From a virus: a stretch of DNA of 38,286 bases. Below are positions 2,547 to 38,286 of the stretch, in pieces; positions within the stretch are counted from its first letter, which is position 1, and each line of letters starts with the position of its first letter. The translations under genes and the position numbers were made by a program. Under the pieces are notes generated by a model that worked only from the letters and a program-made list of their open reading frames with translations, searched no databases and was not told where the DNA came from. Where the stretch lies: IMG/VR virus record IMGVR_UViG_3300045988_086281; one strand, 5' to 3'.

Positions 2547-2696
2547 TTACTCCTTTCTATCTCTTATTGTTGAAACACAACCATTCACAACTTTAACTGG
2601 CAACACTACCTGTTCGATAAATCCATATTTGTAAGGTAGTAAATTCGGTTTATCATCTTTTGTAGACTTGTATGTAAGACCTTGTTTTGATTTCAT
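2547..2696 (-). CDS. Hypothetical small protein (49 aa, MKSKQGLTYKSTKDDK...)
   Basis: I translated this by hand. Its ATG overlaps the methyltransferase stop (TAATG coupling). It is below the size cutoff of the ORF track. Confidence 0.35.
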   Translation of the reverse strand: MKSKQGLTYKSTKDDKPNLLPYKYGFIEQVVLPVKVVNGCVSTIRDRKE

Positions 2697-3493
2697 TATT
2701 TTCCTCCTAACCAACTATCTATTGTTAATTGATTTGAAGAATAATTAAGCATTTCTTCTTTTGCTCTTTTGTAAAATTCCTTAGAAATTTCAAATCCATA
2801 TGAATTTCTATTTAATTCCATACAAGCTCTTAACGTTGAACCGCTTCCGGCGCAAGGATCAATTACTACATCTCCTTCATCTGTAAAAATTTCTACCAAT
2901 TTTTTAATCACATTCACTGGTTTTTGTGCTGGATGAATCTTCGGATATTCTTTTTGGCTATCTCTTTTCCATTCAAACCAATTAAATACCATATGGCCAT
3001 TATTTCTGAATTTAGGTAATTTGTTTCTGTAAAGAACTAATGCATATTCAGTAGCACCGCATACTCTCATGTTTGCTTTTAACACTTGAGGAGAATAGTT
3101 TTTGCAAAATATTAATGGAATGTTATGTTTGAATCCATACTTTTCAGCATATTTTATTACTGTCTGAATTTGTTCAAACGAACAAAATACAATCATACAT
3201 GGAGCATCTGAACTTTTCCCTCTACCATTACTTTTATCTGGTTCTTTTTTTAAAAGCCTATTACAAAAATGAAAATATTCGGCAATGTTAAAATTAAAGT
3301 CTGTATTAAATGCTGCTTTCTTAGCTAATTTACTTTCACCATTCTTGTTATCTCCTCCAACATACCACATTGGATTAGAACCATAAAAATTATTTCCAAT
3401 ATTGTACGGTATATCAGCTATTACTAATTGAGCTTTTGGTATACCATATCGCTTGAAGTTTTGAAAATTATCATTAAATAATTCTGTTTTCAT
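2696..3493 (-). CDS. DNA methyltransferase, N6-adenine/N4-cytosine (beta class, N6_N4_Mtase-like)
   Basis: The catalytic motif VIADIPYN (a DPPY variant) precedes the SAM motif VIDPCAGSGST. This is the beta-class motif order. Confidence 0.85.
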   Translation of the reverse strand: MKTELFNDNFQNFKRYGIPKAQLVIADIPYNIGNNFYGSNPMWYVGGDNKNGESKLAKKAAFNTDFNFNIAEYFHFCNRLLKKEPDKSNGRGKSSDAPCMIVFCSFEQIQTVIKYAEKYGFKHNIPLIFCKNYSPQVLKANMRVCGATEYALVLYRNKLPKFRNNGHMVFNWFEWKRDSQKEYPKIHPAQKPVNVIKKLVEIFTDEGDVVIDPCAGSGSTLRACMELNRNSYGFEISKEFYKRAKEEMLNYSSNQLTIDSWLGGK

Positions 3494-4894: not shown

Positions 4895-5446
4895 TCATTC
4901 ACCTATTAGCTTTCTATCTGTAGTCCCGATTCCTTTTGCCACAAACATATCTAAAACGTCCTTTGGAATCTTGCTTTCTTCCTCTTCTTGCTTTTGTATT
5001 GCTCGGAATGTCCTCATAAAGTTAGATGCAATTACGTTCTGTATGGAATCTATATCCGTCTGCGCCCATTCTCGCAATATAGTCGGATTTCCAACAGCTC
5101 TTTGAATAGTATAATCCAGCTTGTTAAATTCTTTCTCTGAATTATAATTGCTATTGCAAATTGCCTTGTAAACTTTAGCCCAAGCTTCTTGCTCGGTCAT
5201 CTTTTTCTCTGATATTGCGATTTTCTTAATTGTGTTTAATCCATTGATTAGTTGGCCTATGCTTGGAGCAAAACCACCATTTTCAGATTTAATATAGCTC
5301 TTTAGTGATATTGCTATTTCTTGGTATGTATAATCGCTAAGCATATCCGTCCAAACATCAACCATAAACCCTAAGTCATTTGGCTTAAAATTTGGATATG
5401 TAGTTACGACTATCATCACAATCTTTTTGGCTTCTTCTCTGGTCAC
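4895..5446 (-). CDS. G39P-like replicative helicase loader/inhibitor family protein
   Basis: GTG start with a GGAGG RBS. The sequence VVTTYPNFKPNDLGFMVDVWTDMLSDYTYQEIAISLKSY...FAPSIGQLIN resembles the SPP1 G39P family. It lies directly downstream of the replisome organizer. Confidence 0.6.
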   Translation of the reverse strand: MTREEAKKIVMIVVTTYPNFKPNDLGFMVDVWTDMLSDYTYQEIAISLKSYIKSENGGFAPSIGQLINGLNTIKKIAISEKKMTEQEAWAKVYKAICNSNYNSEKEFNKLDYTIQRAVGNPTILREWAQTDIDSIQNVIASNFMRTFRAIQKQEEEESKIPKDVLDMFVAKGIGTTDRKLIGE

Positions 5447-5457
5447 TTAAACACCTC

Positions 5458-6207
5458 CTAAATATTATCCCAATCAATCTTAGGACCAAACCCTGTAATC
5501 TTATCGTCTTTAGTGGTATTGTTTTTAACCGGATAAATATCTTTCCAGTTATTAATGATCGATTGTTCCAGCATTGCTATAGCTTCATCATTAGGCAACT
5601 TATTGATCTTGTTAATCATCATCATAATTGCTCTTTCTGTCATAGCCCCATTTTTTAGTTTCTTTCTCATAGCAATAAAATCTAAAAAAGTTTTATTAAG
5701 AGTTTCATCATTCGGAAAATAACAAGCTGTTTGAGCGTTAGCGAGTGATTTTTTGCTCTCTTTTGACCTATCCTTACCTAACTCTATCCTATCCTTACCT
5801 ATACTATCCTTACCTAACCTAACCTGGGTATCCATTTGGTATACCACATGGTTGTCACTTGGTATACCAACGGTATACGAACCATTGTCTTTTTCTAGCA
5901 ATAATTGCTTTTCATCCTTGTAAACAGTCTCTTTGTATCTGTCATTTCTGATATAGTTATGTATTTTCCAATGCTTGATAACAACTATTCCACTATCAAA
6001 TGGAATAATAAAATTTTTAAGAGATAATAATCTTAAATCATCATCAGATGCGCCTATCATTCTTTGAATTTTTCTTGGATTATTAATAAACCCATCATCA
6101 TCTGCCCTCATACTTAAGTGAAAATAAAGTGATTGTGCGCTTAGTGGCATATCAAGAAATGCATCTGAATCTATGATTGTTTTAGCAAACATCCTTCGTT
6201 CGGCCAT
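5458..6207 (-). CDS. Phage replisome organizer (N-terminal Phage_rep_org_N-like domain, DnaD-like C-terminus)
   Basis: RMFAKTIIDSDAFLDMPLSAQSLYFHLSMRADDDGFINNPRKI...VVIKHWKIHNYIRNDRY is the characteristic N-terminal domain. Confidence 0.8.
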   Translation of the reverse strand: MAERRMFAKTIIDSDAFLDMPLSAQSLYFHLSMRADDDGFINNPRKIQRMIGASDDDLRLLSLKNFIIPFDSGIVVIKHWKIHNYIRNDRYKETVYKDEKQLLLEKDNGSYTVGIPSDNHVVYQMDTQVRLGKDSIGKDRIELGKDRSKESKKSLANAQTACYFPNDETLNKTFLDFIAMRKKLKNGAMTERAIMMMINKINKLPNDEAIAMLEQSIINNWKDIYPVKNNTTKDDKITGFGPKIDWDNI

Positions 6208-6219
6208 ATCGGTATCTCC

Positions 6220-6375
6220 TTACTTAATTCTCTGTAACTCACTAGCCGGATATCGTACAACGTTGCCTATCTTGATTGGAACTAGTATCCCTTTTTTCTT
6301 CCAGTTAATTAATGTATTTCTTGTTACTCCCAGTTTTTCCATAACATCCTGTACTGTGTAATACTCTTTTTCCAT
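6220..6375 (-). CDS. Excisionase/MerR-type HTH DNA-binding protein (51 aa)
   Basis: Hand translation MEKEYYTVQDVMEKLGVTRNTLINWKKKGILVPIKIGNVVRYPASELQRIK. AAGGAG RBS. First gene after the promoter region. Confidence 0.7.
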   Translation of the reverse strand: MEKEYYTVQDVMEKLGVTRNTLINWKKKGILVPIKIGNVVRYPASELQRIK

Positions 6376-7212: not shown

Positions 7213-7803
7213 CTAATTGAAAGGTAAATTTTCCGCGCTTAAATCAACATCCATCCATGTATCAATTGGCTTTGCGATATCTGGGCTGATATTTCTAACA
7301 ATTTCCTTATCCTCTGGCACTTTAAAACGGCCTTCTCTGATTGTATTAACAGATCTAAATCCCTTACACTTAGTAGACCATGCATAATCGCCATTGTTCT
7401 TTTGATATTCTTCACGGCCAAATACGCAGCCAATGCTTTTTCCAACGAAACTTTTAGCGAAATCATTCCCCCAAACAACATGCCATCCTACGTTTGATTC
7501 TGTTACATTCTCGATAAATGTCTTTAACTGGCGGTTTGTATTTCCGTCTTTATCCAGCACCATGATGTATGCAGTTCCACTAAATGGCCACTTCTTATCT
7601 TCTCTGGTATCATCGTTATATTCCTTTGTGAACCGCAGGCTTTCTGGGCCTTCTGCGATATCTACATACACCGTCAACATATCGTTGTTATTACGACTCT
7701 TTCCTTCCTTTACTCCCTTGATAATACAAACATATCCTCCTGGAGTTAATGGCTCAAAATCTGTCATTACCTTGGTTTCATCATATCCTTGTGGTTTTTG
7801 CAT
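7213..7803 (-). CDS. DUF669-family phage protein (recombination-module partner)
   Basis: N-terminal FEPLTPGGYVCIIKGVKE pattern. It sits after the AAA_24 ATPase. Confidence 0.6.
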   Translation of the reverse strand: MQKPQGYDETKVMTDFEPLTPGGYVCIIKGVKEGKSRNNNDMLTVYVDIAEGPESLRFTKEYNDDTREDKKWPFSGTAYIMVLDKDGNTNRQLKTFIENVTESNVGWHVVWGNDFAKSFVGKSIGCVFGREEYQKNNGDYAWSTKCKGFRSVNTIREGRFKVPEDKEIVRNISPDIAKPIDTWMDVDLSAENLPFN

Positions 7804-8467: not shown

Positions 8468-8932
8468 CTACTTTATTTGAATATTTTGCTTTACTTCAAG
8501 TTCTGCGCCTGTTACAGCAATACCATCTTTAAGTGCTTTTTTCACTAATGTTTTGTTAATCGTTGGATCATTGTATACTAGATATTTTTCTGGCACTAAT
8601 GCTGCATTGTTTATTTTTACTGAATCTGATTTACGATAACTGATATTTACTCTTGTAGTCTTAAATTTATTGCCTTGTAGTGCATATGTAAGCCATTCTT
8701 TAAGATTTCCTGCTTTAGCCAAAGAACTACGTTCTAATTGTTCAAAACGCTTCTTTTCAGCTTTATACTGTTCTGCATCTGAAAGCAAATTACGGTACCA
8801 TAAAGCCACGTTTTCTATTTTGGTATCTCGTTCCATTTCAAGCTGTGATAGTCGTTCTTCGTCAAGAATCTCGCCTGTTTCCTGGTCAATACAATTTAAG
8901 ATTTCACTGTCAATTTCGTACAATTTAGCCAT
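8468..8932 (-). CDS. Siphovirus Gp157-family protein
   Basis: MAKLYEIDSEILNCIDQETGEILDEE...ENVALWYRNL...AEKKRFE is the typical Gp157 pattern. I placed the start at the Met of MAKLYEI. Confidence 0.7.
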   Translation of the reverse strand: MAKLYEIDSEILNCIDQETGEILDEERLSQLEMERDTKIENVALWYRNLLSDAEQYKAEKKRFEQLERSSLAKAGNLKEWLTYALQGNKFKTTRVNISYRKSDSVKINNAALVPEKYLVYNDPTINKTLVKKALKDGIAVTGAELEVKQNIQIK

Positions 8933-11668: not shown

Positions 11669-12751
11669 ATGGACTATACTGTATATCAGAGAAAAAGTGA
11701 TAATAAATGGGTAGGATGCTTTTATTACAGGGATGAAAGAAACAAAAGAAAGTCTATCGTTGCATATGGCAAAACAGAACGTGAAGCAACTAAGAAAATA
11801 AGAGAAAAGATATACTTATATGAAAGTGGAAGTTTAAGCACTACTACATCCAGGGAAACTTTAATTGGATTTTTAAACGACTATATAAATAAAAACTCTG
11901 GAGATAAAGGAAAACAGTGGGCTAGTACAACGGTAGAGTTGTACCGGTCCTATGTTGACCAACATTTAAAACCTTACTTTAAAGATAAGAAACTAAATAA
12001 ACTAAAACCAATCGACTTAGATGACTATTACGAATACAAATTAGAAGCGGGACTATCAGGAAATACAGTAATCAAGTTGCATAAGTTTCTGAATGCTGCG
12101 TTTAACTATGGAGTAAAAAAAGATTTAATGGAATCAAATCCATGTTTGAAAGCTACTGCTCCTAAGACAACCGACTACAAGCCAAACATCTATGAACCAG
12201 AACAATTCAATGCATTATGGCAACATGTAAAAGATAAATACGACAGAGTACCTATTGCTTTAGGAGCAGGATGCGGTCTGAGACGTGGTGAAATATTTGG
12301 ATTGAAATGGTCAGATATAGACTTCGAAAATAATACGATAACAATAGAACGTACCAAGACAAGACTTAGAAGCAATATAGAAAAATCACCTAAAACGGAA
12401 CAATCTAACAGGACAATCATTGCTCCGGATTATGTAATTAATGTACTACGTGATTATAAACGTGAAAAACAAGTGTTTAATATTGAAAACTACATTATGG
12501 AAGTAAAACCAGATTATTACTCGAAACGATTTAAGTATCTCCTGGAACGGTTTAAACTACCTCCAACAAGGTTACATGATTTACGTCACTACAATGCTAC
12601 TCTTATGATGATTGCAGGAGTACCAGATAAAATTGCTGCGGATCGTCTTGGCCATAAAGATACTACCATGTTAAAGAAGGTTTACCAACATACTCAGAAG
12701 TCTATGGATAAAATTGCTAGTGAAAAAATTAATGAATTATTAGCAAAATAA
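11669..12751 (+). CDS. int: Tyrosine site-specific integrase
   Basis: GLRRGEIFGLKWSDID (catalytic Arg box), HDLRHYNAT, and LGHKDTTMLKKVYQH (H-x-x-R ... Y). An attP lies immediately downstream. Confidence 0.9.
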   Translation: MDYTVYQRKSDNKWVGCFYYRDERNKRKSIVAYGKTEREATKKIREKIYLYESGSLSTTTSRETLIGFLNDYINKNSGDKGKQWASTTVELYRSYVDQHLKPYFKDKKLNKLKPIDLDDYYEYKLEAGLSGNTVIKLHKFLNAAFNYGVKKDLMESNPCLKATAPKTTDYKPNIYEPEQFNALWQHVKDKYDRVPIALGAGCGLRRGEIFGLKWSDIDFENNTITIERTKTRLRSNIEKSPKTEQSNRTIIAPDYVINVLRDYKREKQVFNIENYIMEVKPDYYSKRFKYLLERFKLPPTRLHDLRHYNATLMMIAGVPDKIAADRLGHKDTTMLKKVYQHTQKSMDKIASEKINELLAK

Positions 12752-12761
12752 AAAAGGATTA

Positions 12762-13053
12762 TGACTACACCACTAGCCACAATCCAAACTTGACTACATT
12801 TTTGACTACATTCAGTTAGCAAAATATAACAAGTAGCCTCAAACGCTTATGCAGTCGACGGGACTTGAACCCGTACGTCCTAACGGACACAAGATCCTTA
12901 GTCTTGCATATATGGAATTTAGTAACACCGCTGATTTACTGCAAAGTATTGATTTTACTGTGCTTTGCAGTATAAGGTACATATAAGTTTCTTCTATTAA
13001 ACATATGTTTAATATGCCGTTTTAATTAGATTTGACTACACTTTTTGACTACA
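12762..13053. mobile_element. attP: a tRNA-derived core flanked by five direct TGACTACA arm-type repeats
   Basis: TGACTACA at 12762, 12791, 12803, 13033 and 13046, all in the same orientation. The core is the tRNA fragment at 12850-12908. Confidence 0.7.
12850..12908 (-). other. 3' portion of a class-II (Leu-like) tRNA: anticodon arm, long variable arm, T-arm and 3' acceptor strand. Not a complete gene.
   Basis: Minus strand reads CAAGA-CUAAGGA-UCUUG, GUCC-GUUA-GGAC, ACGGG-UUCAAGU-CCCGU, CGACUGC-A. There is no matching 5' acceptor strand or D-arm upstream. Confidence 0.75.
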
Positions 13054-13228
13054 TATTGCTCAAAAGTTTTATTGCATCTGAAAAGCCCTTTTTGTAACAT
13101 ATCTCTTCCGCATAAGTTCTGACATACAACTCATCATTACATGTTTTTTCTAGCTTGATAAAATCTTCATTTTCAGCTTCGGCTATTTGGCACCTCTTCA
13201 TAACATATTCTTCAAAATCTTTGTTCAT
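13049..13228 (-). CDS. Hypothetical small protein (59 aa, MNKDFEEYVMKRCQIAEAENEDF...KKGFSDAIKLLSNM)
   Basis: I translated this by hand. Strong GGGGGTGG RBS. Upstream promoter TTGACA (13311-13316, minus) -17- TAAAAT. Confidence 0.55.
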   Translation of the reverse strand: MNKDFEEYVMKRCQIAEAENEDFIKLEKTCNDELYVRTYAEEICYKKGFSDAIKLLSNM

Positions 13229-13393
13229 ATGCCACCCCCATAAAATGTATTATGATGTTACAATATATGGATATTTGCTATATAAATATTTTATTTGACA
13301 TGTAAAAAAATGTCAATGCGTTATCTATAATATGTATTTAATAATCTTTTTTTTCACGTAAATATGGCCGCCACGAATGACGGCCCACTATTA

Positions 13394-13663
13394 CTATTTA
13401 GGTTGTATAATGCTATCTCCAGCATTTAATAATTGCTTCATTCCTAATCTCATACCGTATTGGCTATTGGATAAATCAAATAATGCTTCAATGATCTGGA
13501 ATGGTTGCAGTAATTCATAAATTGTCTTGTCGCGAATTGATAAATCAAAATTACTTCCATCGCCATCTAATGATACAATCTTTACCGCTGCATAAGGAGT
13601 ATGATCTTTCTGCATTTCTTTCATTTCAACCTTCGTTACCATTGCCTGCTTTTTAAATAACAT
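13394..13663 (-). CDS. Hypothetical 89-aa protein downstream of Rep (a small ssDNA-binding role is pure speculation)
   Basis: The ATG at 13661-13663 has an AAGGAGAG RBS and starts directly after the Rep stop codon (13665-13667). Confidence 0.55.
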   Translation of the reverse strand: MLFKKQAMVTKVEMKEMQKDHTPYAAVKIVSLDGDGSNFDLSIRDKTIYELLQPFQIIEALFDLSNSQYGMRLGMKQLLNAGDSIIQPK

Positions 13664-13664
13664 A

Positions 13665-14486
13665 CTATCTCTCCTTTTCATACATATCAAAATAATTAAC
13701 GTTGCTATTCACTTCTTTAAAACCATTCTTATAATTAATATGATAATTACTCATATAGTGGATATCGTACCACTCTGAAAATTCCTGTATTATATCGATA
13801 TTGTCACATAACTGGTAACATGTAGATACTGTTGGTTTTAACAAATTACGACTGTATCCGTAGCATCTGTTTCCCTGTAAGTCTAATTTATATAAATCCT
13901 CTACCAAGTACACAGATACATATAACCCTACGTTTGTATTTCCTTCCTGAGATAAATCACGTATATCTACCCATCCATGTTCCCAAAACACTTCTCTAAA
14001 ATAGTTTTCAAAATCTTTTTGCTCCTGTGGCTTTAATTGTCTGCTTTTCGCTGTTTTAACTGGAACTGGAATATTACATAGCATATGATAATGGATCGCA
14101 CCACGGCCTTGATATTCTAATACGTACAGATATTTCATTCCAGGCCAAAACCTCTGCATCATACGAATACAATTAGATAAATCGACCTTGCTTAATGATA
14201 TATCTTGCATATTCTCTTTGTATGTTAAACTGATAAAAGTAGTTAGATCAGGATTACAATTTACAAGTCGTATAATCTGATTACGTGCTTTATTTAATGT
14301 CTCTCTTCTATTCTTCTCCACTTTTGCACCGCCGCCTTTACCATTTCTTCCAGACTGGTTGTTACCCTTTCTCCCTATTACCTGCGGCAATCCATAACGG
14401 TACACTTCCAATCTGTCTCGACTTTGGACAAACTTTATATTGTACTTATTTTCCAACGTCGTATGTATATCCTGTTCCAATTTCAT
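13665..14486 (-). CDS. Rolling-circle replication initiator / HUH endonuclease (two-tyrosine type)
   Basis: Motif 1 TFISLTY, motif 2 GAIHYHMLCN (HUH), motif 3 GLYVSVYLVED (YxxxY), in the canonical order and spacing. Confidence 0.75.
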   Translation of the reverse strand: MKLEQDIHTTLENKYNIKFVQSRDRLEVYRYGLPQVIGRKGNNQSGRNGKGGGAKVEKNRRETLNKARNQIIRLVNCNPDLTTFISLTYKENMQDISLSKVDLSNCIRMMQRFWPGMKYLYVLEYQGRGAIHYHMLCNIPVPVKTAKSRQLKPQEQKDFENYFREVFWEHGWVDIRDLSQEGNTNVGLYVSVYLVEDLYKLDLQGNRCYGYSRNLLKPTVSTCYQLCDNIDIIQEFSEWYDIHYMSNYHINYKNGFKEVNSNVNYFDMYEKER

Positions 14487-15186
14487 CTGTTATATAGTAA
14501 AATTGGCGGTTACACAGGTATAAATCTTCTGGTGCCTTACCTAATACTACCTTATAAGCACTTTCGTCTAGCATCTTAAAACATACTCTTATATTATATA
14601 AATGTTTATTATTTACAATTTCTTTCTCTGCACATTGCGTGATAGCAATAACATAGATGTTTTTATGGCTACCTACTGCAAGTAGTTGCGTGATTAGATC
14701 CATGATTTTCTTTCCACTACCGCTTTTGATTAATGCCAATATCTCGTCAATAACTACATATATTGGCTCATTGTTTTCCTGAATTTCAACCAGCTTTTGC
14801 AGCACAACCTCAATCTCTTTGATGTCATTAATTCTTTCACATTTAACGCATGGAAAATCTCGCTTATCTGTATTTAACAGAATTACGTTCTTATTTTGGA
14901 TAGAATACTCTATCATTTTTGTTTTACCCTGTCTTGATAGTCCACAAACTAATACATGCGGCATTCTTTGCATATCAGCAATAATTGGTTTACGATAACC
15001 TCCGAATTGTTTATAACCTAATACAAGTTCATGTGAGCTTATTACAGGCTCTTCTATTGATACCCTGTATTCTTCTTCTAATGTAGCTTTATAATAGCTC
15101 CTAACGTCCTTTACTGCTTCGATTATGCCATATCCAGCGTATCCAACGATTCCAGCTCCTAACATAGTGAATAATTCGTTTACCAT
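14446..15186 (-). CDS. Minimal FtsK/SpoIIIE-family DNA translocase ATPase with one N-terminal transmembrane helix
   Basis: TM helix MLGAGIVGYAGYGIIEAV. MPHVLVCGLSRQGKT (Walker A), IYVVIDEILAL (Walker B), VIAITQ, and NIRVCFKM (RxxF arginine-finger region). Confidence 0.75.
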   Translation of the reverse strand: MVNELFTMLGAGIVGYAGYGIIEAVKDVRSYYKATLEEEYRVSIEEPVISSHELVLGYKQFGGYRKPIIADMQRMPHVLVCGLSRQGKTKMIEYSIQNKNVILLNTDKRDFPCVKCERINDIKEIEVVLQKLVEIQENNEPIYVVIDEILALIKSGSGKKIMDLITQLLAVGSHKNIYVIAITQCAEKEIVNNKHLYNIRVCFKMLDESAYKVVLGKAPEDLYLCNRQFYYITDEIGTGYTYDVGK

Positions 15187-15262
15187 AAAACCAACTCTTT
15201 ATTGTTGTTTGATATATTCTATGTTCATTTACGTAATTTGATACCAATTACGTGAAATATTT

Positions 15263-15424
15263 TTATTTTTTATTTGATAACATTTTTTCATACAGAACTT
15301 TCTTTATAAAATCCTGTGCTCTCAATATACCTCTTTCATTTTCTATCCAGTCATAAAGCTGCTGATCCGTTTCATTATCACGATAATTAATAGTATGCTT
15401 TTTTCTTTTTTCATCGCCTATCAT
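15263..15424 (-). CDS. Small regulator-like protein heading the Rep/FtsK cassette (53 aa)
   Basis: Hand translation MIGDEKRKKHTINYRDNETDQQLYDWIENERGILRAQDFIKKVLYEKMLSNKK. GGGGTG RBS. TATAAT (minus) at 15469-15474, with a TTACGTAA box at 15457-15464. Confidence 0.5.
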   Translation of the reverse strand: MIGDEKRKKHTINYRDNETDQQLYDWIENERGILRAQDFIKKVLYEKMLSNKK

Positions 15425-15701
15425 ATTATCACCCCTTTATACATATATATGATAAATTACGTAATTTTATTATAGTTTACGAAGATAATCACGTTTAAAT
15501 AGCTTCTATCAAGTTTTGCTCCGTCCTACTCCTTCTACGTCTTAGATTCCCTTCGCTACTGCCATTTATTCACCCTCCCAGTCTGCGACTGTGAGTGCGC
15601 ATAAACAACATTCGCTACGGTATATCTGCGCCTACGAAGAAGTATGCCATCGCATACATAATGTTGCTATGTAATTTGATAGTTTAGGAGGAATAAAAGC
15701 A

Positions 15702-15833
15702 ATGAGTAATTATCATAATAAGATTAGAAATGATTATAGACGCATAAAAAGACAACGCATTGAACTATTAAAGGCTAGAATTGGATTTGGATTTATCGTG
15801 TTTGTGATGTGTTTATTCTATTTCTTTGGATAA
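15702..15833 (+). CDS. Small membrane peptide (43 aa: basic N-terminus, hydrophobic C-terminus)
   Basis: AGGAGG RBS 8 nt upstream. MSNYHNKIRNDYRRIKRQRIELLKARIGFGFIVFVMCLFYFFG. Convergent with the endolysin gene. Confidence 0.5.
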   Translation: MSNYHNKIRNDYRRIKRQRIELLKARIGFGFIVFVMCLFYFFG

Positions 15834-15910
15834 GCTATTTCCGAATTAAATAGATAATATAGATTTTAATATGCAATTCGTTTAAAAAAATGCAAGTACA
15901 AATAAAAAAT

Positions 15911-15938
15911 AGCCCCAATGGAATAATCCAAAGGGGCT
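15911..15938. terminator. Bidirectional intrinsic terminator between the small plus-strand ORF and the endolysin
   Basis: Stem agcccc pairs with ggggct, with an A-run upstream and a T-rich tract downstream. The T-run is stronger when read on the minus strand. Confidence 0.7.
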
Positions 15939-15943
15939 TTAAT

Positions 15944-16702
15944 TTATGCAGCAAGCGATTTAATTGTCTTGGTTCCTACCGTACCTAGGCGCTTAATCTT
16001 AAGTTCTGTATGAGACTTCTGGTAAGCTACAACAGCAGCATACGTTTTCGAGCCAAATTCTCCATCTACCTTAAGGTTAGCACCGTTTTTGTTAAGTTCA
16101 TATTGCAGCCACTTAACATCTTCGCCTTTGTCTCCTTTTTTGAGTTCTCTTGTTGGCTTTTTATATGGATTGGTTTTCTCCATAGCTTTTTTAACGTCTT
16201 TACGGAAGTCATCCATATCTTTCCCATACTTAGGGAACCAATGCATAACATCTGCATGATTAGATCCATAGCCTAACTTATGAGCTTCACAATGGCAAAC
16301 AATATCATCACTATCAATCTTGTATTCTTTACAGATTTCCGCAAATACTTCTACCGCTTTGTTATAGCAGTCAGTAAAGTATTCTTTGTCCTTCAAATCA
16401 TCTTCTGCAATCTCAACCTGGATAGCACAACTGTTATAGGAACCTTTGCTACCTTTGCCAACTCCGGCGGCTTTTTTCGTAAATGGAAGTAATTGAACAA
16501 ATTCAACATTTCCGTCCTTGTCTTTACCGATAACCCCATGAACGGAATTTCTAGCTGTTTTACTATTCCAACTATTGGTCCATCTACTTAAATTAGGATT
16601 ATTGCATCCTGTGCTATGTAATACCATCTTTGTTGGTTTGATTGTTCCATAGTTATAAAATGGATTCAACTTGCATAACATTTGTTTGAAATTCAATCCC
16701 AT
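15944..16702 (-). CDS. Endolysin: N-acetylmuramoyl-L-alanine amidase (Amidase_2/PGRP-like) with a C-terminal PG_binding_1 domain
   Basis: MVLHSTG...VHGVIG...CHCEAH Zn-amidase pattern. C-terminal KGDKGEDVKWLQYELNKNGANLKVDGEFGSKTYAAVVAYQ. Confidence 0.85.
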   Translation of the reverse strand: MGLNFKQMLCKLNPFYNYGTIKPTKMVLHSTGCNNPNLSRWTNSWNSKTARNSVHGVIGKDKDGNVEFVQLLPFTKKAAGVGKGSKGSYNSCAIQVEIAEDDLKDKEYFTDCYNKAVEVFAEICKEYKIDSDDIVCHCEAHKLGYGSNHADVMHWFPKYGKDMDDFRKDVKKAMEKTNPYKKPTRELKKGDKGEDVKWLQYELNKNGANLKVDGEFGSKTYAAVVAYQKSHTELKIKRLGTVGTKTIKSLAA

Positions 16703-37640: not shown

Positions 37641-38286
37641 CTACTTTTCTACATCAATCCCTGTAATTTCCTTGAAAATATCTGCGTCAAAGTTAGGAAT
37701 GTCTTTAATAATATCCTTTTCTTCATCCGTAAGATCTTCCCACCATTCTTTATAGCATTCAGAAGTATCACGTTTTCTAAGATATCCTCCAGTTGTTTTA
37801 TATGATGGATATTTTTTCTTTTCTTCTTCTGTCATTCCTGACGCAGCAATCCACTCAACTGTCTCAAAACATATTCTATCCATAATACTTCTTGCTTCTG
37901 AATTTAACCAATCCATATAAGTAATATCCGAATCCTTATTAAACATCTTAATTTTTGAGTTTTTTGTATTAAAACATCCTGTGTTGTAGTCTCCTATGTT
38001 GAAATCTCCTGTGTTGTAGTCTCCTATGTTGAAATCTCCTGTGTTGTAGTCTCCTATGTTGAAATCTCCTGTGTTGTAGTCTCCTATGTTGAAATCTCCT
38101 GTGTTGAAATATCCTGTGTTGTAGTTTCCTGTGTTGTAGTTTCCTGTGTTTCTGTTTCCTGTGTTTCTGTTTCCTGTGTTGTAGTATCCTGTGTTGAAAT
38201 ATCCTGTGTTGTAGTTTCCTGTGTTGAAATATCCTGTGTTGTAGTTTCCTGTGTTTCTGTTTCCTGTGTTTCTGTTTCCTGTGTTG
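37641..38286 (-). CDS. Pentapeptide-repeat protein, C-terminal part (17 repeat units plus a 112-aa C-terminal domain); same gene as 1..420
   Basis: The repeat frame at 37977-38286 reads straight through ...NTGCFNTKNSKIK into the tracked ORF 37641..37946, with no stop codon between. Confidence 0.8.
   Translation of the reverse strand, partial: NTGNRNTGNRNTGNYNTGYFNTGNYNTGYFNTGYYNTGNRNTGNRNTGNYNTGNYNTGYFNTGDFNIGDYNTGDFNIGDYNTGDFNIGDYNTGDFNIGDYNTGCFNTKNSKIKMFNKDSDITYMDWLNSEARSIMDRICFETVEWIAASGMTEEEKKKYPSYKTTGGYLRKRDTSECYKEWWEDLTDEEKDIIKDIPNFDADIFKEITGIDVEK
37977..38286 (-). repeat. 15-bp tandem repeat array, including four perfect 30-bp super-units at 37977-38096
   Basis: Units start every 15 bp from 37977. 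(tcctgtgttgtagtc tcctatgttgaaatc) x4 encodes (DFNIG DYNTG) x4. Confidence 0.95.

Follow-up and report, generated by a model that had tools for sequence, protein, structure and literature searches.

A conserved DNA-processing module in a temperate clostridial phage

The phage genome IMGVR_UViG_3300045988_086281, a circular assembly of ~38.3 kb that we analyzed over its full 38,286 nucleotides (here called the window), carries a conserved module on its minus strand at positions 13394 to 15480. The module encodes a small presumed regulator, an FtsK/TcpA-type ATPase, a rolling-circle replication (RCR) initiator of the HUH superfamily (Rep), and a member of a family of ~85-residue proteins. It is a self-contained, actively maintained DNA-processing unit, and it circulates among Clostridium plasmids, chromosomal islets, and an accessory slot of siphophages that lies past the lysis genes on the att side. 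By analogy with the integrative mobilizable and conjugative elements of Firmicutes, and with RCR plasmids that the conjugative ones mobilize, we tentatively propose, at a probability of about 0.4, that single-stranded DNA (ssDNA) passes from the Rep that makes it to the membrane ATPase, to be exported or mobilized. In the literature searched, neither the presence of this module in tailed prophages nor its conserved third gene is described.

A sequence-only reading of the window had suggested a cassette of five minus-strand open reading frames (ORFs) between attP and the lysis genes. We found all five where that reading had placed them (13049 to 15424, encoding 59, 89, 273, 246, and 53 residues), together with every ATPase and Rep motif it had quoted, and the position of the cassette holds. 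The Rep and ATPase genes overlap by 41 nt, and the gene for the 89-residue protein follows the Rep gene after a gap of 1 nt. Homology with the related phage L009 (loci from our searches carry L numbers) sets the cassette borders at 13445 and 15265. No direct repeats bounding the cassette had been seen by eye, and none exceed chance, the longest common word being 10 nt, where shuffled sequences average 9.6. The sole recombinase near the cassette is the phage integrase at 11669 to 12751. With neither bounding repeats nor a recombinase of its own, the cassette is thus better described as an exchangeable accessory ("moron-slot") module than as a nested integrated element.

An intact rolling-circle initiator paired with a minimal FtsK-family ATPase

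The Rep (273 residues; 13665 to 14486, minus strand) matches the Pfam family PF23343 (REP_ORF2-G2P) at 58.3 bits, above the gathering cutoff of 27.8 (E value, 9.8e-16), and phrog_3419, annotated as "rolling circle DNA replication initiation," at 7.6e-24. Its three motifs, FISLTY, HYHML, and YVSVY, occur in order, the last providing two catalytic tyrosines. Across 30 Rep homologs, residues F84, L87, T88, H132, H134, Y189, and Y193 are invariant, which bears out the HUH identity first proposed from the letters alone. The longer of the possible starts is the true one, since N16, K18, R25, and E27 are conserved. The Rep of the Brevibacillus plasmid pHT926 matches the hidden Markov model (HMM) of the family at 1.4e-37. 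Judged by these matches and residues, the window Rep belongs to the pHT926/PF23343 HUH family and is an intact two-tyrosine initiator with a complete set of nick-join residues. Its homologs form more than 100 clusters at 90% identity, and the named ones all come from Clostridium species. More distant members of the family (26 to 35% identity) serve as the sole Rep of RCR plasmids of 1.5 to 7 kb, and Reps of the "bajarodino virus" type, from 4- to 8-kb Inoviridae recovered from rodent feces, are up to 32% identical. The similarity to RepSA (PF20199) spans only 30 residues around the HUH motif and scores 17.5 bits against a cutoff of 34 (E value, 0.0024).

The ATPase (246 residues; 14446 to 15186, minus strand) is a P-loop protein of the FtsK/TcpA type that consists of the motor core only. 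It exceeds the cutoff of PF01580 (FtsK_SpoIIIE; 27.4 bits against 24), matches phrog_1358 ("FtsK/SpoIIIE-like") at 4.8e-16, and contains the motifs PHVLVCGLSRQGKT, YVVIDE, AITQ, and RVCF. Residues G82, G87, K88, D147, E148, Q184, and R200 are invariant among 14 homologs. The family profile, searched against the Protein Data Bank (PDB), retrieves the FtsK motor at 5.9e-10 with a PIIxDxxxxPHxLVxG...GK signature before the P-loop, and the profile alignments cover only FtsK residues ~195 to 233 and 345 to 437. An AlphaFold2 model (predicted local distance difference test score [pLDDT], 80), with ~200 residues beyond its N-terminal helix, gave as top Foldseek matches the conjugation coupling protein TcpA of plasmid pCW3 (6o1y; E value, 3.8e-10; template modeling score, 0.60) and FtsK (6t8g), both at a probability of 1.0. 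The FtsK-type identity claimed earlier is therefore upheld by both profile and model.

Compared with the pCW3 TcpA and FtsK motor structures (6o1y, 6t8g, and 2iut), the window ATPase shares the RecA-like fold and the Walker A, Walker B, and arginine motifs, but identity is only 17 to 19%. At 246 residues in all, it lacks the alpha subdomain and the sequence-recognizing gamma domain of FtsK, SpoIIIE, and TraB, as well as a clear N-terminal double transmembrane (TM) segment and the interaction regions of TcpA. An NCBIfam scan gave no match above cutoff, and the plasmid_TraB model was not matched. The single N-terminal TM helix ascribed to the ATPase is only weakly borne out: the segment is Gly-rich and weakly hydrophobic (maximum Kyte-Doolittle value over 19 residues, 1.31), the long helix spanning residues 2 to 45 of the model has low confidence, and homologs have from zero to two predicted TM segments. 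A single FtsK-like domain encoded directly upstream of an RCR-type initiator gene is the arrangement described for the TcpA type (PMC5357655), and the window has it. Sequence and model together place the ATPase in the FtsK/SpoIIIE family, as a minimal member whose architecture is TcpA-like.

The 89-residue protein (13394 to 13663, minus strand) is described from its conserved start; the mechanical ORF list gives 98 residues from an upstream TTG. Its family of ~85-residue proteins adjoins the Rep in every Clostridium-clade locus (hmmsearch E values of 2e-22 to 5e-35, and alignment), and this co-occurrence marks it as the obligate third component of the module. Nonsynonymous differences in its gene amount to 0.31 to 0.40 per site, against 0.67 to 0.76 for synonymous ones. 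The family (14 members) has no match in Pfam and no profile match in the PDB, and hhalign found no similarity to the M13 protein gVp or to CAK1_03 of the filamentous phage CAK1. A word-based search for homologs of the 89-residue protein returned one near-identical cluster, and a structure model built from two sequences was unusable (pLDDT, 46). We propose, as a proposal only, that the protein is a single-strand-binding or processivity accessory.

The presumed regulator is a 53-residue protein (15263 to 15424, minus strand) with homologs in the same position at L009, L010, L013, L022, L025, and L029; at other module loci, the slot is filled by a homolog of the CAK1_02 regulator of phage CAK1. 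It has no match in Pfam, PHROG, NCBIfam, or the PDB, and the impression from its sequence pattern is of a ribbon-helix-helix (RHH) protein. The acidic 59-residue protein (13049 to 13228, minus strand) had been counted in the cassette as separately promoted. A predicted promoter does precede its gene (TTGACA-17-TAAAAT, 13316 to 13288, minus strand; 11/12 match), but the gene is a neighbor of the conserved module and not a member of it, the only homolog found lying in L009 inside a shared int-attP segment.

The module is conserved as a unit and maintained by selection

A scan of Rep loci, with one genome per species, yielded 40 loci. All relatives come from Clostridia or Bacillota, and the close ones are all from low-GC Clostridia. 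At every Clostridium-clade locus recovered (L009 to L031 and L055), the genes for the ATPase, the Rep, and the ~85-residue protein lie next to one another, and the gene tables of L069 to L071 show an equal layout (an ATPase-sized gene, the Rep gene, and a gene for ~84 residues), with the ATPases confirmed by alignment. The common order is small regulator, ATPase (225 to 320 residues), Rep, and 85-residue protein. In a minority order, the Rep and the 85-residue protein are followed by a larger FtsK-like protein of 441 to 486 residues; this variant includes a 16.4-kb plasmid of Clostridium sp. HCS.1.

In prophages, the module (30 to 78% protein identity) lies no more than ~3.5 kb downstream of the endolysin gene in at least 10 different backbones. 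The adjacent endolysins are unrelated: of the Amidase_2 type in the window lineage, L009, and L013; a peptidase M15 in L010; a Phage_lysozyme in L029; Amidase_3 in L024, L026, and L031; and GH25 in L019 and L071. The module is the final block before host DNA or a tRNA, as at feoB in L013 and miaB-mutS in L020, and a tRNA gene lies 119 to 458 nt past it in the integrated relatives L023, L026, and L029. We considered the module as the ordinary replication initiator of the window phage and rejected this, given the phage's own replication module and the presence of the cassette in unrelated backbones.

Between the window and its relatives, nonsynonymous differences reach 0.13 to 0.40 per site, while synonymous differences, at 0.67 to 1.0, are saturated, and the module genes are therefore maintained by selection. 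Such purifying selection, together with the invariant catalytic residues, rules out a decaying remnant; the captured remnant that the sequence-only reading had offered as one possibility is accordingly dismissed.

Several genes recur around the module. Two chromosomal copies in Clostridium ihumii (L017:4283-7379 and L020:6397-9412) have no adjoining endolysin, and each is preceded by a gene for a DUF3862 lipoprotein. In five loci (L022:8321-9034, L025:6616-7317, L055:6165-7091, L069:4884-5693, and L070:3332-4279), the module is preceded, at a distance of a few genes, by a sigma-70-like gene with regions 2 and 4. Among the genes beside the module are a Hachiman system (HamA and helicase; L070:10159-14045), Abi_2 (L069:9769-10746), a PemK toxin (L010:8293-9051), and a D12 adenine methyltransferase (L019:6898-7698).

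Relatives on plasmids, integrative elements, and a filamentous phage

The kinship with plasmids suggested earlier is well founded. Clostridium perfringens plasmids of 9.5 to 15.5 kb (for example, NZ_CP102299.1, NZ_CP102418.1, and NZ_CP075907.1) have the four module genes in unchanged order: a 56-residue protein, an ATPase 34 to 37% identical to that of the window, a Rep 38 to 42% identical, and an 85-residue protein, all of them annotated as hypothetical. They differ from the window in their longer ATPase (~320 residues) and in their context, which comprises a ParA/RHH pair, a small recombinase, and a NikA-like protein. On the 13.9-kb NZ_CP102299.1, the module is the only recognizable replication function and lies beside the ParA/RHH pair. 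The same plasmid (L067) encodes a 96-residue NikA-like protein (2870 to 3160) and a 380-residue protein that weakly resembles tyrosine recombinases (5155 to 6297). The 380-residue protein brings to mind the atypical relaxase of pCW3, and a separate mobilization system may be present here. Plasmids pHT926 (Brevibacillus, 1,786 bp) and those of the pFN1 type (Fusobacterium, ~5 kb) share the Rep family and its three motifs with the window, but they have neither the ATPase nor the 85-residue partner, and identity is only 26 to 32%. Other RCR plasmids with a sole Rep of this family occur in Geobacillus (1,540 bp) and Clostridium cadaveris (1,618 bp).

A comparable gene pair is known from integrative elements. 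In integrative and mobilizable elements (IMEs) and integrative and conjugative elements of Firmicutes, a tcpA coupling-protein gene lies upstream of an RCR-type relaxase gene (PMC5357655). The pairing has been reported in 83 IMEs, including a class with a PHA00330-type Rep, one of them at a tRNA-Leu gene (PMC5357655, PMC5704250). Outside this class, the PHA00330 domain is known from Reps of plasmids and viruses. The plasmid Reps cited for the class include that of pHT926 (PMC5357655), through which the window Rep may be assigned to the same class (IME_Class_3). In streptococcal IME_Class_3 elements such as IME_SpnA45_tRNAleu, an FtsK-related ATPase gene lies directly upstream of a gene for an RCR-initiator-like protein, as it does here, and the likeness extends to a tyrosine integrase, a tRNA-type site, and the lack of a type IV secretion system (T4SS) of their own (PMC5357655, PMC5704250). 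The differences are that the att-bounded element of the window is a complete 38-kb siphophage and not a small island, that its ATPase is shorter (246 residues) and without two clear TM segments, and that a third gene, for ~85 residues, is obligatory. By this comparison, the unit probably works like, and is probably related to, the modules of TcpA plus RCR relaxase. Integrase, attP, Rep, and ATPase do lie on one circle, but the earlier proposal of IME kinship stands for the architecture alone: taken whole, the element falls outside the IMEs, since what the att sites bound is an entire phage, complete with terminase, portal, capsid, tail, and lysis genes.

The filamentous Clostridium phage CAK1 (OX639564.1) encodes a homolog of the ATPase. 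CAK1_11, an FtsK-domain "putative assembly-export protein," is 40.5% identical to the window ATPase over 210 aligned residues (BLASTP E value, 6e-51; 41% in the multiple alignment). On the circular CAK1 genome, its gene comes after a Zot-like gene and before the Rep gene (CAK1_01), and the order of ATPase, small ORF, Rep, regulator (CAK1_02), and ssDNA-binding protein (CAK1_03) parallels that of the module, in many copies of which a homolog of CAK1_02 is found. The two differ in that CAK1 has Zot-like, coat, and adsorption genes and the cassette has none, that the CAK1 Rep is of another family (E value, 0.008, by motif only), and that CAK1_03 has no detectable similarity to the 89-residue protein, which holds the corresponding place after the Rep. 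A phmmer search with the structural and Zot proteins of CAK1 found no match at any of 54 loci, and Pfam and PHROGs found none in the cassette. With no Zot or coat genes, the cassette is not an inovirus, and we rejected a complete integrated inovirus on these grounds. In a neighbor-joining tree of 21 representatives, the CAK1 ATPase is the only one from an inovirus and nests among the versions from plasmids, prophages, and islets; its nearest relatives are 57 to 60% identical, the closest being the ATPases of the chromosomal copies in C. ihumii (L017 and L020), at 58 to 60%. Capture of the module ATPase by CAK1 thus appears at least as likely as the reverse. Separately, a distant relative of the Rep in a Christensenella metagenome-assembled genome (L036:4163-11621) is followed by a tyrosine integrase and preceded by several small proteins with one TM segment each, a 473-residue protein, and a P-loop protein of 317 residues, a layout that looks like an integrated Gram-positive inovirus.

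Putative control sites of the module

The region upstream of the regulator gene (15425 to 15480, minus strand) contains the palindrome AAATTACGTAATTT at ~15454 to 15467 and is a putative operator for the module. The motif TTACGTRAW has nine matches at seven distinct sites in the window, where 1.75 matches are expected, and four of the seven sites, palindromic and of the TTACGTAA type, lie in or beside the cassette. The spacer between the regulator and ATPase genes (15187 to 15262, minus strand) has TTACGT(A/G)A motifs at 15228 to 15237 and 15248 to 15256; it is ~78% conserved with L013, whose spacer also contains the motif. The fourth motif, TTACGTGAA, is found downstream of the gene for the 89-residue protein (13353 to 13361, minus strand) and directly follows the equivalent gene in L010 and L024 as well. 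Also directly downstream of that gene is a GC-rich hairpin, GGCCGCCAcgaaTGACGGCC (~13367 to 13388, minus strand), and the region that holds both (13351 to 13390) could serve as terminator, operator, or nick site. Copies of T(T/C)ACGT(A/G)A adjoin the module in the window and in L010, L013, and L024; most other loci have none. We found no hairpin conserved across all module loci, and a k-mer search of the module flanks for a common nick site returned subgroup-specific motifs only. Inverted and direct repeats (D3, D12, I11, and I18) were also recorded in the control regions of the module.

The cassette had been described as having its own promoter regions. A site with an 11/12 match does precede the gene for the 59-residue protein, as given above, but the number of promoter-like sites in the cassette region (17, with 18.1 expected) is not above chance. 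Four other loci share a promoter-like motif 49 to 207 nt upstream of the ATPase gene, GGAAAC... followed by GCATACATATAAA (L017:~5395-5470, L020:~7412-7487, L029:~8640-8700, and L031:~3005-3065); it is missing from the window subgroup, which has the TTACGTAA palindromes in its place.

The phage genome around the cassette

The phage is a temperate, tailed siphophage with a Clostridium-like host. The first 55 nt of the window equal the last 55, and both lie inside a tandem repeat of 15 nt (consensus TCCTGTGTTGYWGTY; 37977 to 38286 and 1 to 100; ~27 copies in all), so the circular assembly was cut within the repeat. Its lysogeny module includes the tyrosine integrase (11669 to 12751, plus strand; PF00589, 5.7e-20; phrog_1, 8.2e-68), next to which lies the attP region (12752 to 13060). 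Here, the 3' half of a tRNA-like sequence (~12849 to 12905, minus strand) is flanked by the arm-type repeats TTGACTACA(T/C)TTTTTGACTACAT at 12790 to 12811 and 13032 to 13054. An Rfam search gave a weak, sub-threshold match that resembles a T-arm, and ARAGORN called no tRNA on the window. The region is 80% identical to L009, in which ARAGORN finds a whole tRNA-Leu with anticodon aag (L009:12919-12999).

By Pfam and PHROG matches, the genes around the cassette encode a helix-turn-helix repressor, a holin, and an amidase endolysin (15944 to 16702), and the structural genes of the window include those for the terminase, portal, major head protein, and tape measure. The phage also has a separate replication-recombination module (DnaD-like, G39P, Sak4, and Gam), which, with the terminase, agrees with the earlier description of a phage equipped for its own replication and packaging. 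Two DNA methyltransferase genes lie in the early region (1543 to 2280 and 2696 to 3493; phrog_757 and phrog_67). The spacer between the module and the endolysin gene (15470 to 15943) is outside the conserved module and confined to the window phage lineage. It contains 230 nt of GC-richer noncoding DNA, a 43-residue ORF, and a bidirectional terminator hairpin. The minus strand of the noncoding stretch folds as ssDNA with a z score of -2.4 and could be a single-strand origin. The 43-residue ORF (15702 to 15833, plus strand) is preceded by an AGGAGG ribosome-binding site; its product, basic in the N-terminal half and strongly hydrophobic in the C-terminal half, could be a small membrane toxin.

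A megablast search with the cassette and late region found no match among 50,697 phage records, and a search of IMG/VR with the integrase, aimed at a cassette-free relative, gave no confirmed match. The cassette is fixed in the window lineage, being present at all 10 places listed among the 23 contigs with an identical endolysin. All contigs of the window phage look like ordinary circular assemblies of ~38 kb with integrase and attP. On one contig of the window phage (L006:703-5428), a truncated tail-fiber gene is fused directly to an Fe-hydrogenase gene, and the fusion stems from chimeric assembly, from a deletion variant, or from a junction with the host.

What the module may do

The reading that we favor, at the probability of about 0.4 given above, is export or mobilization of ssDNA. 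The regulator would release its promoter, and, with the phage DNA excised as a circle, the Rep would nick it at a cognate site and remain covalently bound to it. Rolling-circle unwinding would then yield ssDNA, with the 89-residue protein assisting on the displaced strand, and a hexameric membrane ATPase would take the Rep-DNA complex and pump it outward. The likeliest channel would be the mating pore of a co-resident conjugative element, and the phage integrase would insert the re-circularized copy into the recipient at its tRNA att site. Whereas a Rep alone suffices in tiny plasmids, the clostridial Rep is always coupled to a membrane-type pump, which argues for a function beyond replication. 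We favor an export role because plasmids, IME-like arrangements, and a secreted filamentous phage have in common the generation of ssDNA and its passage through a membrane. Consistent with such a role, the ATPase gene precedes the Rep gene much as tcpA precedes the relaxase gene in Firmicute IMEs, and the best structural match of the ATPase is a conjugation coupling protein. CAK1, a phage obliged to export ssDNA, keeps a homolog of the ATPase between its Zot-like gene and its Rep gene.

Several observations weigh against export or mobilization. No nick site or origin of transfer was identified in the window or the module flanks, and no T4SS genes were seen near any module locus, including those with the larger FtsK-like protein and the plasmid among them. 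MOB-suite types the module-bearing C. perfringens plasmids as non-mobilizable, and their NikA-like and weakly recombinase-like proteins could be the true mobilization genes of these plasmids. The TcpA protein of pCW3 has two N-terminal TM domains; the window ATPase is much shorter and lacks two clear TM segments, and its profile is nearer to FtsK, a pump for double-stranded DNA (dsDNA), than to TcpA. Defense and toxin-antitoxin genes surround the module in several prophages. Finally, the relaxase activity of RCR-type Reps in IMEs is itself only predicted (PMC5357655).

A bolder version, which we hold to be doubtful, is that siphophages of Clostridia are dual-mode elements, releasing virions and also operating a compact device that exports ssDNA copies of the genome, the same device being the missing export component of Gram-positive filamentous phages such as CAK1. 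Export would then proceed through the conjugation pore of a helper, through the assembly site of a helper filamentous phage, or by a route new to Firmicutes that needs the pump alone.

The main alternative would be an auxiliary plasmid-type replicon, in which the Rep and the 89-residue protein replicate the excised circle by rolling circle, for example as an episome or for amplification, and the ATPase serves in segregation or the handling of multimers. The Rep family includes the sole Rep of RCR plasmids of 1.5 to 2 kb, the module alone accounts for recognizable replication on NZ_CP102299.1, and the 230-nt stretch with its ssDNA folding could supply a single-strand origin. A small regulator with palindromes upstream also resembles the copy control of RCR plasmids. 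We nevertheless think this unlikely, as the phage already has a complete replication module and replication leaves unexplained the strict coupling to a membrane-type FtsK ATPase at 25 loci or more. Moreover, RCR replicons are normally limited to small genomes, not ones of 38 kb, and every contig of the window phage looks like an ordinary circular phage assembly of about that length. The accessory slot that houses the module is one where exclusion and defense genes gather, and its neighbors include Hachiman (L070), Abi_2 (L069), PemK (L010), and a DNA methyltransferase (L019), which invites the thought that the Rep and ATPase nick or titrate incoming RCR plasmids, IMEs, or CAK1-like phages with related origins. 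PADLOC matches the ATPase partially to mad8 (3.3e-9 over 80 residues), but none of its 5,027 models is matched in full. The complete nick-join residues, with both tyrosines conserved, and the occurrence of the module on plasmids and of its ATPase in a filamentous phage make a core role in replication or transfer more natural, and superinfection exclusion or defense seems quite unlikely.

The parallels with CAK1 raise a further alternative, that the module represents those parts of a CAK1-type inovirus that replicate and export DNA. It would either let ssDNA from the phage be packaged, like a satellite, by a co-resident filamentous helper or be left over from a captured inovirus. In its favor are the 41% identity and parallel gene order of CAK1_11, the CAK1_02 homologs in many modules, and a Rep that matches rodent-feces Inoviridae and belongs to a Pfam family, PF23343, named after plectrovirus and inovirus Reps. 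Yet no homolog of Zot/pI, coat, or adsorption proteins was found by phmmer or Pfam in or near the modules, the Rep of CAK1 belongs to a different family, its ATPase nests within plasmid and prophage diversity so that capture by CAK1 is at least as likely, and purifying selection excludes a decaying remnant; we judge this link very unlikely. The sequence-only reading had also compared the cassette with actinomycete integrative and conjugative elements (AICEs) of the pSAM2 type. Here, the ATPase alone would pump dsDNA to a neighboring cell in the manner of Streptomyces TraB, and the Rep would only re-replicate it. On paper, the set of integrase, Rep, FtsK-like ATPase, and small regulator does resemble pSAM2, the lack of T4SS genes beside the modules fits, and there is the weak match to RepSA. 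That match falls below threshold, however, the ATPase is a motor core without a C-terminal DNA-recognition domain, and the cassette has no TraB features and no Spd, Nudix, or Kor-type genes. The hosts are unicellular low-GC Firmicutes, whereas the TraB mechanism is restricted to mycelial Actinobacteria (PMC5704250). We therefore rejected an AICE and abandoned the comparison, and TraB-like transfer is extremely unlikely.

Implications

On a conservative reading, the module is a widespread, unannotated family of three genes, for the ATPase, the Rep, and the ~85-residue protein, that are labeled "hypothetical" in genomes and on plasmids. It is also a candidate answer to two questions: what role FtsK/TcpA-like proteins play on small plasmids and IMEs of Firmicutes, and how CAK1, a filamentous phage with a Gram-positive host, gets its DNA through the envelope. 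Should the module export or mobilize DNA, tailed prophages of clostridia could reach cells that lack a receptor, without lysis or virions. This would blur the boundary between phage, IME, and plasmid and bear on the spread of prophage-borne genes in gut clostridia.

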